The position numbers and the translations under genes are program-made. Shown here in pieces: positions 27,837 through 29,446 of a stretch of 64,000 bases of DNA. The stretch is from a virus, in UHGV virus genome UHGV-0326994; one strand, 5' to 3'. The notes under the pieces were generated by a model. The model was not told the DNA's origin and ran no database searches. It saw only the letters and a list, made by a program, of their open reading frames with translations. Numbering within the stretch: the first letter of the stretch is position 1; each line of letters begins with the position of its first letter.

Positions 27837-27911
27837 CTGGAACATGGTACTCACTAAAGGACTTGAACCTTTTTCTTCATCTTGTAAGGGTGGTGTTTTA
27901 CCATATAAACT
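27837..27911 (-). tRNA. tRNA-like gene, possible anticodon UAC (Val), weak anticodon stem
   Basis: Good acceptor (ACTCGCT/AGTGAGT), T-arm and CCA, but the anticodon stem pairs at only 3 of 5 positions. Confidence 0.4.
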
Positions 27912-28007
27912 AAGCGAGTGTGAAAGAGGTCTGAAGTTGTGCCACTAACTCAACTCCGTGGAATTTGTTACGGTCTTCAGTTGACTCAAAGTGGTCTTTC
28001 ACTTGAC

Positions 28008-28083
28008 CTCTGAATTGGTGCTCCCACAAGGATTCGAACCCTGATAAGTTGCTTACAAGGCAACCGTAATAGCCAATTATACG
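28008..28083 (-). tRNA. tRNA-Thr (anticodon UGU)
   Basis: Anticodon stem-loop GTTGC CTTGTAA GCAAC; CCA encoded. Confidence 0.7.
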
Positions 28084-28090
28084 ATAGGAG

Positions 28091-28165
28091 CATTAATTTG
28101 GAGCATCCAGAGGGAATCGAACCCTCAACCTCAGTTTGGAAGACTGTAATTTTCCCGTTTAAACT
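28091..28165 (-). tRNA. tRNA-Gly (anticodon UCC)
   Basis: Acceptor GCATCCA/TGGATGC; anticodon loop CTTCCAA; CCA encoded. Confidence 0.7.
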
Positions 28166-28171
28166 ATGGAT

Positions 28172-28247
28172 GCACTAATTGGTGGAGTCACTGAGAATTG
28201 AACTCAGTTCCCAAGTTTGCAAAACTCGAATTTTAACCATATAAACT
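28172..28247 (-). tRNA. tRNA-Ala (anticodon UGC)
   Basis: Acceptor GGGGTCA with G3-U70 pair typical of tRNA-Ala; anticodon loop TTTGCAA; CCA encoded. Confidence 0.7.
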
Positions 28248-28253
28248 ATGACC

Positions 28254-28329
28254 CCAATATTTGGTACAGGTGGAGGGAATTGAACCCATCGTCTTACTGA
28301 TTAAGAGTCAGCCGCATAACCATTTTGCT
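28254..28329 (-). tRNA. tRNA-Lys (anticodon CUU), tentative
   Basis: Anticodon stem-loop GCTGA CTCTTAA TCAGT; T-stem only 3 bp; paralogous to the 29972-30047 tRNA. Confidence 0.5.
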
Positions 28330-28336
28330 ACACCTG

Positions 28337-28414
28337 CATTAATTTGGTAGGAGACAAGGGATTCGAACCCTCAAACACCAACTTCTAAGGATGGTAGGTT
28401 TACCAATTACCGTC
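28337..28414 (-). tRNA. tRNA with Leu anticodon UAG, class-I length
   Basis: 78 nt; D-loop TAATTGGTAAA; anticodon stem-loop CCATC CTTAGAA GTTGG; discriminator A; CCA encoded. Confidence 0.5.
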
Positions 28415-28425
28415 AATCTCCCATT

Positions 28426-28522
28426 AAATCTTTTTAGAGAACTTCTAAGAACCTAAGCAACAAGGTTCCACAACAAGCTGTAATAACCTTAGAAGCCCTC
28501 TAAAAAGACCTAAGTAGGTCTT
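28426..28522 (-). ncRNA. structured non-coding element with terminator in tRNA array
   Basis: tctttttagag..cttctaag pairs with cttagaag..ctctaaaaaga; inner stem aacct/aggtt; then hairpin aaagacc-taagta-ggtcttt followed by a T-run on the minus strand. Confidence 0.4.
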
Positions 28523-28678
28523 TGCATAGTCTTGTTTAATCCGGTGACTAGAACCTTTGGAGAGCTTGATATTATCTCTTCTCCGTGACACCTACTAGGT
28601 GCTTTACTGTGCGTGTACGACAATACACGAGGGATACCAAAGCAACATCCGAATGAAGCTTGGCTTTAAATCTTATTA

Positions 28679-28768
28679 GGCGGTAAGTAAAGGAGTCGAA
28701 CCCTCACCGTATCGCTACAGTGGCAACTGTTTTCAAGACAGTTTGGCTACCATTAGCCGCTACCTACC
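28679..28768 (-). tRNA. tRNA-Ser (anticodon UGA), class II
   Basis: Anticodon stem-loop ACTGT CTTGAAA ACAGT; 3 bp D-stem GGC/GCC; long variable arm; 3' end encodes CC only. Confidence 0.65.
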
Positions 28769-28781
28769 CCTAATAAGACTT

Positions 28782-28864
28782 TGGCATGGGACGGAGGAGT
28801 TGAACCCCTTTGAAACGGTTTTGGAGGCCGTTGCTCATGCCTTAGAGTCTTAACATCGTCCCAC
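28782..28864 (-). tRNA. tRNA-like gene, anticodon CCA (Trp?) with enlarged D region
   Basis: 83 nt; acceptor, T-arm, CCA and anticodon arm ACGGC CTCCAAA ACCGT are in register, but about 7 extra nt lie between acceptor and anticodon stem. Confidence 0.4.
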
Positions 28865-29001
28865 ACTATAATTCGAAGCTTACCGTATTATCTCAACACT
28901 GTAAAGCCCCTTCTCAGATTATTTACATGTTCTGGAAAACATGAGATACAGACCACCTCCCTACAGGAAGACCCGCTTAGGTCGTCTAAGTAATCTGCTA
29001 A

Positions 29002-29349
29002 CTAATACTTTGCATGTCTTACCCTATGGCAATTTGAACATAGCAAAACACATTTGTCAAGTTCATCCTTTAACTCTTGAGAGAATTTAAGGCTCTTTCT
29101 ACGACCAATGCTAAAATCTTTCTCTGAAGGATTCAAATGATGGAAGTCATACACTGCTGGATGATAACTTTCACCACAATCATGACAAACTCCACCTTTG
29201 TACTCAATAGCTAAAAGTTTCAGTGCTCTTTGTCTTTCTATGGTTTGCTCATTAACACACTTTTTACAGTATGAATGAGTTCTCTTACCATCTTTCATGT
29301 AGAAATCATTTTCATCCTTGCTAAGTTTACACTTAAGACAAGTTTTCAT
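29002..29349 (-). CDS. HNH endonuclease (homing-endonuclease-like)
   Basis: Zn-knuckle CLKC...CKKC plus HNH motif CHDCG...YDFHHLNP...CSNCHRVRH; start taken at MKTCLKC because the longer ORF would run into the adjacent tRNA. Confidence 0.75.
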   Translation of the reverse strand: MKTCLKCKLSKDENDFYMKDGKRTHSYCKKCVNEQTIERQRALKLLAIEYKGGVCHDCGESYHPAVYDFHHLNPSEKDFSIGRRKSLKFSQELKDELDKCVLLCSNCHRVRHAKY

Positions 29350-29364
29350 GATTTCATCCAAAAT

Positions 29365-29446
29365 TGGTCGAGGCGGCAGGACTCGAACCCGCATACTCCA
29401 CTTACTCGGTTAACGGCGGTTTAGAAGACCGCTGAGATACGCCCCG
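29365..29446 (-). tRNA. tRNA-like gene, anticodon UCU (Arg?) with atypical arm arrangement
   Basis: Acceptor CGGGGCG/CGCCTCG, T-arm GCGGGTTCGAGTCCTGC, CCA encoded; perfect stem-loop GCGGT CTTCTAA ACCGC lies too close to the 5' acceptor, followed by a 23 nt extra region. Confidence 0.4.

Follow-up and report, generated by a model that had tools for sequence, protein, structure and literature searches.

A stretch of 64,000 nucleotides (nt) from the virus genome UHGV-0326994, referred to here as the window, carries a cluster of transfer RNA (tRNA) genes in which two members depart from the standard cloverleaf: a tRNA-Arg(UCU)-like gene whose D-arm equivalent appears to enclose the anticodon arm, and a tRNA-Trp(CCA)-like gene with an extended acceptor stem, a shortened T stem and a long linker in front of the D stem. 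An earlier note, made from the sequence alone, had flagged both loci together with a tRNA-Val(UAC) gene as tRNA-like genes with intact ends and aberrant cores. The analysis presented here indicates that all three are probably genuine genes of the phage tRNA cluster, the Val gene being ordinary, the CCA element a non-canonical tRNA-Trp and the UCU element a tRNA-Arg with a rewired core. The window is assigned to Felixounavirus (Ounavirinae) because in a megablast against GenBank phages (323 records) region 27500-30100 shows 95-97% identity to Felix O1, a Salmonella phage, and to its relatives from Escherichia. ARAGORN called 25 tRNA genes in the window, throughout on the minus strand and spanning 25399-31165, and Rfam recovered 24 tRNAs at gathering score. 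The three flagged loci lie within this minus-strand cluster, in the same orientation as the 25 called genes. The 25 canonical tRNAs serve 19 amino acids, and tryptophan alone is uncovered.

Results

The Arg(UCU) element lacks a D hairpin in its usual place

Read from its 5' end, the Arg element begins with the acceptor strand (nt 1-7, paired with nt 72-78), followed by U8, A9 and U10, the first strand of a putative three-pair helix (nt 11-13, with partner nt 40-42), A14 and the anticodon arm (nt 15-31) with its loop CUUCUAA. A bulge (nt 32-39, CGUUAACC), the second helix strand, a D-loop-like segment (U43-U54, UAAGUGGAGUAU), the T arm (nt 55-71), discriminator A79 and CCA complete the gene. 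With acceptor and anticodon stem no more than 7 nt apart (UAUCUCA), no D hairpin occurs at the canonical position. The remaining parts are those of a tRNA, with a 7-base-pair (bp) acceptor, a 5-bp T stem, A73 and a 7-nt anticodon loop that has U33 and a purine at 37, loop features shared by the CCA element.

Search programs handled this element poorly. Its match to the Rfam tRNA model RF00005 was marginal (31.7 bits, gathering score 29) and required an alignment that drops the D arm and adds 20 nt ahead of the T arm, and ARAGORN did not call it as a tRNA-Arg in any mode (standard, intron, low-threshold or mitochondrial). At an 80% threshold with introns allowed, ARAGORN forced the element into a "tRNA-Tyr(AUA) with a 6-nt intron", which we rejected as an artefact. 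One other parse was also discarded. Taking the hairpin at nt 15-31 as the D arm, with the true anticodon arm in the 23-nt segment before the T arm, disagrees with its loop, which has the Y-U-NNN-A-A signature and carries four anticodons across the family, all for arginine. In addition, the 23-nt segment is invariant and would place a G at position 33.

The Arg architecture is conserved in unrelated phages and covaries

A sensitive BLAST search with the 82 nt of the Arg element returned 263 GenBank phage records containing it, and nearly every copy was unannotated among the 40 records listed. Full-length homologues with 82-90% identity occur in unrelated phage groups, including Klebsiella phage Sugarland and Serratia phage Kamaji (Demerecviridae), Justusliebigvirus PD06, Mydovirus KPP-1, Streptomyces phage BoomerJR and jumbo phages of 310-383 kb (Asteriusvirus and others). 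In all, the family spans six unrelated lineages (Ounavirinae, Demerecviridae, Asteriusvirus, Stephanstirmvirinae, Vequintavirinae and one Streptomyces phage). When these homologues were aligned, the acceptor, anticodon and T stems were found to diverge widely yet always to pair, and three stretches were near-invariant: the linker UAUCUCA, the loop CUUCUAA and the post-anticodon segment CGUUAAYCGAGUAAKUGGAGUAU. In BoomerJR the linker has CGC in place of CUC and the 3' segment correspondingly has GCG in place of GAG, and this paired change suggests a long-range helix (11-13/40-42) that encloses the anticodon arm.

Covariation was measured in two alignments. The first (A1) comprised 11 BLAST-derived sequences chosen without any pattern; a four-helix structure was paired in 99.5% of its cells, 13 of 20 pairs showed double changes, and none of 500 shuffles scored as high. 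The second (A2) comprised 46 sequences from a first scan of IMG/VR in which the anticodon arm and the middle pair of the helix were left free (74 loci, 50 distinct sequences). Here 99.0% of cells were paired, with double changes at 16 of 20 pairs and a covariation score of 0.796 vs 0.198 for shuffled alignments (0 of 500 as high), and controls with slid partners paired at 34-46%. A second scan of viral contigs, looser and blind to the anticodon, found at least 120 loci, which together with the earlier loci gave at least 100 distinct, well-formed members. Among the 100 listed, the anticodons were UCU (57), ACG (31), CCU (11) and UCG (1), all of them arginine anticodons with C35 invariant. Pair 12-41 was Watson-Crick in every one of these members (U-A 39, C-G 39, A-U 13, G-C 9), with a mutual information of 1.75 bits, and positions 14 and 39 co-varied as A·C or C·A. 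The UGGA motif of the D-loop-like segment was invariant in the 11 BLAST-derived homologues. Within the 50 distinct sequences, the discriminator was A or G in 47 and CCA was encoded in 31. All seven enterobacterial phages that were fetched encode it, and the Streptomyces phage does not; in this, the family follows the behaviour of ordinary tRNA genes.

From these data, the rewired Arg family was defined by U8 A9 U10 C11-N-C13, one nucleotide, an anticodon arm, a bulge, a G-N'-G strand pairing with 11-13, UAANUGGA, a short link, a canonical T arm and an arginine anticodon. The window element has all of these features and matches both scan patterns. A covariance model built from the family (R1) gave it 101.4 bits, compared with at most 35 bits for the canonical tRNAs of the window and at most 37 for those of other loci. 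The model also detected divergent members with shorter bulges, as well as one copy lacking part of the gene (L236, 1458-1532) that resembles a real pseudogene. In 596 Gb of bacterial and archaeal genomes (185,579 species, one genome each) the Arg pattern matched five times, always on contigs of metagenome-assembled genomes, so the family is essentially viral. Its members sit in tRNA clusters, with a median of 9 canonical tRNAs per locus, and a canonical tRNA-Arg with the same anticodon lies nearby in about 3 of 140 cases. One contig carries both a UCU and an ACG rewired member.

An ACG subclass (L134 2052-2133, L148 308-389 and about 30 other IMG/VR loci) was observed with a bulge of ~4 nt, a link of 5-9 nt before the T arm and C·A at 13-40. 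It shows that the architecture has diversified across arginine isoacceptors.

The Trp(CCA)-like gene has an 8/4 design with a long linker

The CCA element has 26 nt between acceptor and anticodon stem if the acceptor is read as 7 bp, a surplus of ~7 nt. In the parse preferred here, an 8-bp acceptor (GUGGGACG/CGUCCCAU) is followed by a linker of 9 nt (AUGUUAAGA), where a canonical tRNA has 2 nt, a 3-bp D stem (CUC/GAG) with an 8-nt loop (UAAGGCAU), and the anticodon stem AACGG/CCGUU plus a C·A, with loop CUCCAAA. A 5-nt variable loop, a 4-bp T stem (GGGG/CCUC), G73 and CCA make up the 3' part. Neither ARAGORN in standard mode nor RF00005 at its gathering score (29 bits) detected the gene. The mitochondrial mode was the sole ARAGORN mode to do so, calling it mtRNA-Trp, and the best match within the tRNA clan was a weak one to the tRNA-Sec model (23 bits vs gathering score 47).

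Copies of this element were found in 236 GenBank phage records, and among the matches listed nearly all were unannotated. The family shares an 8-bp acceptor, a linker of 7-9 nt (ARNKUAA...), a D hairpin, a 5-bp anticodon stem, the loop CUCCAAA, a variable loop of 5-6 nt, a 4-bp T stem and G73. The first pair is mostly A1-U72, and the anticodon stem is closed by C31·A39, replaced by U-A in two members. The D hairpin has 3 bp and an 8-nt loop in Ounavirinae, including the window, and 6 bp with a loop of 3-4 nt in four distant contigs (L026, L162, L192 and L229); wholly different 8-bp acceptors are found in distant contigs as well. Within Ounavirinae the D stem covaries from CUC/GAG to CAC/GUG, the anticodon stem is compensated from AACGG/CCGUU to GUAAG/CUUAC and the T stem from GGGG/CCUC to UGGG/CCUA, the phages concerned being Moogle and Sf17. 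In an alignment of 10 sequences, 95.8% of cells were paired and 11 of 17 pairs showed double changes, with no shuffle as high among 500. The 8/4 division is itself upheld by these sequences (the window element and 9 relatives): the eighth acceptor pair covaries (G-C four times, U-A four times, U·G once), every cell of the 4-bp T stem is paired, and no pair ever forms between positions 49 and 65. A covariance model built from the family (R2) scored the window element at 93.1 bits and found further CCA members in unrelated phage contigs, plus one member on the same scaffold with a cysteine anticodon. The latter, on a 111-kb viral contig (L048, 10290-10371, minus strand), combines the 8/4 division, linker and 6-bp D stem with anticodon GCA and a 6-bp anticodon stem.

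The CCA element is read as a phage tRNA-Trp because tryptophan alone is missing from the canonical set and because of its identity elements: G73 and the mostly A1-U72 first pair agree with the determinants of Escherichia coli tryptophanyl-tRNA synthetase (TrpRS), namely G73 and the first pair. It would most likely supply tryptophan, the sole amino acid without another phage tRNA. For the Moogle-like phage Sf14, a tRNA set for 19 amino acids without tryptophan has been reported (PMC12482277).

The Val(UAC) gene is an ordinary tRNA

Apart from its weak anticodon stem, the third flagged locus is an ordinary tRNA gene. The Val gene scored 55.8 bits with RF00005 (gathering score 29), received a normal ARAGORN call and has its D hairpin in the usual place, a 7-bp acceptor, a 5-bp T stem and a standard anticodon loop. 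Its anticodon stem CCACC/GAUGA is mismatched at C27·A43 and C30·A40. Among relatives, 27-43 is mostly U-A and 30-40 is mismatched in every case (C·A or U·U). The earlier note had correctly reported the UAC anticodon and 3 of 5 stem pairs, but it placed the gene 8 nt off (27837-27911) and, in calling the core aberrant, overstated the case. That description was accurate for the other two loci, whose coordinates it gave exactly: the CCA element does have its CCA anticodon, an encoded CCA and ~7 surplus nt between acceptor and anticodon stem, and the UCU element has an anticodon hairpin starting at nt 15 and a 23-nt segment before the T arm. A high-scoring canonical cloverleaf, which the note had named as the sign that its arm boundaries were wrong, was obtained for the Val gene and for neither of the odd elements.

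The odd genes replace canonical alleles gene for gene

Related loci (31) were retrieved through a conserved neighbouring protein. Both odd elements are 97-100% identical across the Felixounavirus loci, the Trp-like gene in 21 of them, and Felix O1 itself has the two together. The Arg slot holds the odd 82-nt gene in 13 loci plus the window and a canonical 77-nt tRNA-Arg(UCU) in 11, never both together; the rewired gene thus replaces canonical tRNA-Arg(UCU) in roughly half of the Felix O1-like phages sampled. At the Trp slot, the odd 83-nt gene occupies those same 21 loci and a compact 71-nt tRNA-Trp recognised by ARAGORN is found in a few. The alternative alleles are unrelated in sequence to the odd genes and differ from them in acceptor stems and T arms, for which reason we rejected the idea that the odd genes are degraded copies of the canonical ones. 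In a multiple alignment between the tRNA genes, flank homology reached to within a few nt of the gene ends, so both slots have undergone exact gene-for-gene replacement. Among Felixounaviruses the Arg element varies solely by coupled substitutions in its anticodon stem, where both G17-C29 and G15-C31 are replaced by U-A.

Two observations were made on the other occupants of this region. The canonical tRNA-Arg(UCU) alleles of L005, L008, L012 and L015 are near-identical save for their anticodon stems (ACGGU/AUCGU, AAUGA/UCAUU and AGUGC/GCACU, with two more substitutions in L015), where the differences are fully compensated, an unusually fast turnover of one arm. In L016, a ~120-nt tRNA-like sequence (GGTCAAG...GTAGGTTCGACTCCTACCTTGACTGCCA) lies in the interval between the canonical tRNA-Arg (4860-4936) and the Trp slot; it has a 7-bp acceptor, a T arm, G73 and CCA, and received no ARAGORN call.

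Homing endonuclease genes near the rewired Arg gene are of two families

An open reading frame (ORF) for an HNH endonuclease follows the Arg element in the window, and in relatives it is annotated as HNH or endonuclease VII. Compared with HNH-less relatives it is a clean insertion, with boundaries ...CCAAT / TTAGTTAGCAG, and in the Felixounavirus loci compared the window-type insertion was present only beside the rewired allele. HNH genes lie 9-16 nt past the rewired Arg gene in the window, in phages Sugarland, PHA46 and Kamaji and in the IMG/VR loci L025 (=L077), L055 and L088. All of these except the window gene belong to the HNH_3 family, which has no detectable similarity to the Felix-type enzymes. 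The latter form a paralogous set located behind several tRNA genes, including the compact Trp allele. Most members of the Arg family have no endonuclease downstream, as an ORF of any kind starts within 120 nt in only 34 of 74 and few of these were HNH. As a general rule, an obligatory mobile cassette of tRNA and HNH gene was rejected, given two dissimilar HNH families, many copies without an endonuclease and many Felixounaviruses without HNH. Endonuclease-driven gene conversion probably helps the odd tRNA alleles to move among phages; it leaves the selection on the RNAs unexplained.

Table 1 Features of the window discussed in the text, with the evidence for each
Feature	Position	Strand	Evidence and remarks
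Candidate rewired tRNA-Arg(UCU) gene, 82 nt (79 + CCA)	29365..29446	-	Rfam; alignments A1 and A2; family scans; model R1
Putative long-range helix, 5' strand, RNA nt 11-13, CUC	29434..29436	-	Pairs with nt 40-42
Putative long-range helix, 3' strand, RNA nt 40-42, GAG	29405..29407	-	After the anticodon arm
Arg anticodon UCU	29423..29425	-	Loop CUUCUAA; would read AGA
UGGA motif, RNA nt 47-50	29397..29400	-	Proposed counterpart of canonical D-loop U17 G18 G19 A20
Non-canonical tRNA-Trp(CCA)-like gene, 83 nt	28782..28864	-	Sequence and fold; ARAGORN -mt; tRNA-Sec model; family covariation
Trp-like anticodon CCA	28822-28824	-	Loop CUCCAAA
tRNA-Val(UAC) gene, 75 nt including CCA	27845..27919	-	Canonical cloverleaf; ARAGORN; Rfam RF00005; sequence parse
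Val anticodon UAC	27884-27886	-	
HNH endonuclease ORF, 115 amino acids, MKTCLKC...	29002..29349	-	ORF list; start 15 nt past the CCA of the Arg gene
Predicted sigma-70-like promoter, TTGACA-17-TATAGT	29770..29798	-	Match to 11/12 consensus positions; upstream of the Arg, HNH and Trp genes

Other features of the tRNA cluster

The promoter-like site is kept in all aligned relatives. Directly downstream of it, the window and L013 carry an extra insertion of ~91 nt (window ~29670-29760, minus strand) that other Felixounaviruses lack. In the leader between promoter and Arg slot (29577-29649, minus strand) is a stretch resembling the resume and tag region of transfer-messenger RNA (tmRNA), AAAAUAAAU GCA AAC GAC AAU GUU UUU CUG GCA GUA GCU UGA, which corresponds to ANDNVFLAVA and a stop. 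It has no in-frame start codon upstream, its stop lies inside a small hairpin, and no tRNA-like domain accompanies it; the Rfam models tmRNA_permuted (20.3 bits) and tmRNA (11.9 bits) both matched well under their gathering scores. The stretch is kept in all Felixounavirus loci and in Mooglevirus, with changes limited to GAC to GAU (synonymous), UGA to UAA and one Val to Ala. A functional link between this leader and the rewired Arg gene was considered and rejected, since the rewired gene is present in many phages without the leader and the leader also lies beside canonical alleles.

Two further features adjoin or interrupt the cluster. An ORF of 471 amino acids (31331-32746, minus strand) next to it matches DUF2828 (E 1e-30) and DUF7788 (E 1e-43). 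The interval between tRNA-Leu(UAG) and tRNA-Ser(UGA) holds a hairpin of ~100 nt (28418-28517) formed by a long imperfect inverted repeat, which matched only plant microRNA precursor models, below threshold and reflecting its hairpin shape.

Discussion

Proposed fold and function of the Arg RNA

The conservation, covariation and allelic replacement described above suggest how the Arg RNA may be built. Up to A14 it would follow the 5' half of a normal tRNA (acceptor, U8, A9, a D-stem strand and A14), after which the anticodon arm would come next, followed by a bulge of 3-8 nt, the strand partnering nt 11-13, AAKUGGA and the T arm. The motif AAKUGGA resembles the D-loop sequence A14-R15-Y16-Y17-G18-G19-A20 of standard tRNAs. 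The canonical order of D5', D loop, D3' and anticodon arm would then become D3', anticodon arm, D5' and D loop, with the anticodon arm nested inside the D arm. Counted as a stack, the 5 anticodon-stem pairs, A14·C39, the 3 helix pairs and U10·U43 would give 10 layers, and the standard tRNA also has 10 (5 + 26·44 + 4). This equal layer count makes an L-shape of normal size plausible, in which G48 and G49 could make the T-loop contacts of the elbow and A50 could take the place of A20.

In E. coli, arginyl-tRNA synthetase (ArgRS) uses A20 as its main determinant, together with C35, position 36 and A/G73 (PMC9976931). The Arg element keeps these identity positions in the form of the A20-like A50, C35, U36 and A73, and their joint conservation would explain why the scaffold is restricted to arginine. 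We propose that the UCU gene would be processed as a tRNA, charged by the host ArgRS through these four positions and used to read AGA. Demand for such a tRNA can be seen in the window, because AGA is the commonest arginine codon of its long ORFs (227 of 538, 42%) and its only canonical tRNA-Arg has the anticodon ACG. According to Whichard et al., whose paper reports the genome of Felix O1, a tRNA reading AGA was "expected" in this phage yet not found (PMC3185647).

A more far-reaching proposal is offered tentatively, as a possibility that we hold to be doubtful at present. It states that the UCU gene represents a translationally active fold class with a permuted core, charged by ArgRS via a relocated A20 and used on the ribosome, which phages may keep and exchange as it would be invisible to host defences or turnover that recognise standard D-arm/anticodon-arm geometry in their tRNA targets; the 8/4 Trp gene would be a second example. 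By analogy with phage tRNAs that counter such systems, escape from tRNA-cleaving defences would be an attractive reason for these designs.

Several observations weigh against reading the odd elements as working tRNAs, or weaken individual parts of that reading. RNAfold and RNAalifold predictions recovered the three classical arms and lacked the long-range helix. This helix has only 3 bp, of which 11-42 was set by the search patterns of both scans and 13-40 by that of the first, so that pair 12-41 alone is fully independent evidence; among the 100 listed members, 13-40 is C-G in 78 and C·A in 22, the latter mostly of the ACG subclass. Both scan patterns likewise required UGGA, so that only the 11 BLAST-derived sequences give independent evidence of its invariance. 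Re-permutation in silico, in which G40-G51 were moved ahead of U10-C13, led ARAGORN to call tRNA-Arg in 100 of 100 cases, but scrambled controls were also called as tRNA at 97% and 74%, and the exercise therefore says nothing on the helix. Alleles would be expected to exclude each other at one slot irrespective of what they do. Both slots are flanked by homing endonuclease genes, so part of the spread could be selfish hitch-hiking. For the Trp-like element, the occurrence of the 8/4-plus-linker scaffold with a cysteine anticodon means that it is not isotype-specific, and the C31·A39 closing mismatch and 9-nt linker could harm ribosomal function. Finally, all that is said here on the function of either element has been deduced from sequence comparison.

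Comparison with known tRNA systems

The Arg element shares with canonical tRNA-Arg(UCU), represented by E. coli argU and the canonical Felixounavirus allele, a 7-bp acceptor, A/G73, CCA, the loop CUUCUAA on a 5-bp anticodon stem, a T arm with UUCGA, U8, A14 and the UGGA motif, and it occupies the same slot under the same codon demand. It differs in having no D hairpin at nt 10-26, in placing the partner of nt 11-13 and the GG-containing loop after the anticodon arm, and in the bulge of 3-8 nt at the start of the variable loop; its primary sequence is unrelated, and it is missed by ARAGORN and marginal in Rfam. The lack of a D hairpin in the usual place and the early anticodon hairpin are also seen in D-armless mitochondrial tRNAs (nematode mt-tRNA-Ser(UCU), mammalian mt-tRNA-Ser(AGY)), one of which likewise bears a UCU anticodon. 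These mitochondrial forms are flexible molecules of ~55-65 nt, often with reduced T arms, and have no GG/T-loop elbow. In contrast, the Arg element has full length (79 nt + CCA), a canonical T arm, a covarying equivalent of the D stem and a GG motif, and ARAGORN in mitochondrial mode made no call on it. In the circularly permuted tRNA genes of Cyanidioschyzon merolae, the 3' half is encoded ahead of the 5' half, and processing by way of a circular intermediate restores a canonical mature tRNA. The Arg element resembles these in that its segments depart from cloverleaf order, but its acceptor ends keep their usual order and the D half is rearranged relative to the anticodon arm inside the molecule, so that the mature RNA itself would be non-canonical.

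For the Trp-like element, the closest parallels are 8/4 tRNAs, described from bacteria and phages with Ser, His, Cys and Sec identities (PMC5389517, PMC7609411); some irregular ones have "an extra loop between acceptor stem and D-stem" (Mukai et al. 2017, PMC5389517). In common with 8/4 and 9/3 tRNAs (allo-tRNA, selC* tRNA-Cys, 8/4 tRNA-Ser and tRNA-His), its 12-bp branch is divided 8/4 rather than 7/5 and it is found in phage tRNA clusters; among its relatives are also found the long D stem with a 3-4 nt loop (in the four distant contigs), the six-layer anticodon stem and the extra loop between acceptor and D stem. The Trp isotype, unmentioned in PMC5389517, sets it apart from the 8/4 tRNAs reported, as do a variable loop of 5-6 nt without a long V arm and, in the window, a D stem of 3 bp with an 8-nt loop. 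The G73 and A1-U72 of the Trp-like element point to Trp identity and not to Ser, unlike in allo-tRNA. We conclude that it is an 8/4 tRNA but no allo-tRNA, because its variable loop is short and G73 and the CCA anticodon indicate Trp. Variants of tRNA-Trp(CCA) with an altered D arm or a weak anticodon stem read UGA (Hirsh G24A, A9C and a 4-bp anticodon stem; PMC13092985). The Trp-like gene also combines a CCA anticodon with a non-standard D region and anticodon stem. Those variants have an unpinned 27-43 or point changes, whereas the Trp-like gene has a C31·A39 closing mismatch, an extra 26-44-like pair and a different core. UGA ends 7 of the 42 long ORFs of the window, and no evidence was found there for UGA reading by this gene.

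Alternative explanations

The odd elements could be tRNA mimics that act outside translation, as decoys or sponges for tRNA-targeting nucleases, for ArgRS and TrpRS or for modification enzymes, or as precursors of small RNAs. We regard this as unlikely, while noting that phage tRNAs do counter tRNA-cleaving defences such as PARIS, retron-Eco7 PtuAB and P2 OLD, in part through anticodon-loop variants (PMC10264068, PMC11464382, PMC11555353, PMC12445682), that a conserved anticodon loop on an unusual core could suit a decoy, and that the fast, compensated turnover of the anticodon stem in canonical Arg(UCU) alleles hints at selection on that arm. However, a decoy for an anticodon nuclease needs no covarying 7-bp acceptor, A/G discriminator, host-matching CCA or A20-like UGGA. 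The elements also substitute for canonical genes with the same anticodon instead of accompanying them, several arginine isoacceptors are built on the Arg scaffold, and tryptophan would otherwise be the single missing amino acid. A working tRNA is favoured over a mimic because of the acceptor, discriminator and CCA, the A20-like base, the several isoacceptors and the substitution of canonical genes.

Alternatively, homing endonuclease cassettes might be what chiefly maintains the odd genes, as their passengers or immunity alleles, with the HNH enzyme cutting the endonuclease-free allele and gene conversion dragging the neighbouring tRNA along whatever its quality. The close spacing of HNH and Arg genes in several phages, the restriction of the Felixounavirus insertion to the rewired allele, the paralogous HNH of the compact Trp allele and the exactness of the swaps at gene ends, as localized conversion predicts, all fit such a scenario. 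Nevertheless, it is improbable as the chief explanation. The two HNH families, Felix-type and HNH_3, have no detectable similarity; most Arg family members have no endonuclease downstream, and many Felixounaviruses carry the rewired gene without HNH; at the Trp slot HNH is linked to the compact allele and not to the 8/4 allele. Moreover, hitch-hiking accounts for spread and not for purifying selection and covariation in every helix. As a mechanism of dispersal, it is compatible with working tRNAs.

Very little probability is given to the elements being chiefly RNA-processing punctuation, that is, sites for RNase P and RNase Z that free the HNH mRNA and neighbouring tRNAs from a polycistronic transcript. 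The short distance from CCA to the HNH start codon and the promoter-like site upstream of the whole block agree with it, and an acceptor/T minihelix suffices for such cleavage. It leaves unexplained the conservation and covariation of the anticodon arm, the arginine-only anticodons, the long-range helix and UGGA, and most copies have no downstream ORF.

That the two elements are tRNA pseudogenes decaying after damage by indels or endonuclease activity, as the earlier note had allowed, is scarcely credible, despite the ARAGORN misses, GenBank copies mostly left unannotated or labelled tRNA-OTHER, the adjoining homing endonuclease genes and two tRNAscan "pseudo" calls reported for Felix O1, which concern other genes (PMC3185647): pseudogenes are excluded by covariation (helices paired at 95.8-99%, double changes at 11/17, 13/20 and 16/20 pairs, 0/500 shuffles) and by conservation of the architecture across unrelated phage families, with arginine-only anticodons in the Arg family. 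The BLAST-derived alignment A1 argues against an artefact of pattern retrieval, the odd genes are unrelated to the alleles they replace and hence no degraded copies of them, paired changes are the sole substitutions in the Felixounavirus Arg gene, and the partial copy in L236 shows what a true pseudogene looks like in this family. The other option raised in the note, tRNAs with unusual D regions, agrees for both the CCA and the UCU element with covarying stems, intact anticodon loops and synthetase identity positions, and the exact replacement of canonical genes.

Implications

Neither the rewired Arg architecture nor an 8/4 tRNA-Trp was found described in the full-text literature searched, most subscription journals not being covered. 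A review cataloguing non-canonical tRNAs lists none from phages and nothing comparable, and Rfam has no dedicated family. Since nearly all listed copies are unannotated, phage tRNA inventories, codon-compensation analyses and statements about "missing" tRNAs are biased, examples being the missing AGA tRNA of Felix O1 and the 19-amino-acid sets of Moogle-like phages.

Should the Arg RNA function as a tRNA, cloverleaf connectivity would not be obligatory even for a full-size elongator tRNA of the bacterial type, and a D half and an anticodon arm joined in another order would be tolerated by ArgRS, EF-Tu, RNase P, modification enzymes and the ribosome alike. This would be useful to tRNA structural biology and to the design of orthogonal tRNAs. 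Within the Felix O1-like phages, the natural allelic pairs (canonical and rewired Arg, compact and 8/4 Trp) in near-identical genomes offer a ready test bed for whether unusual tRNA architecture benefits phages facing the recently discovered tRNA-cleaving defences.

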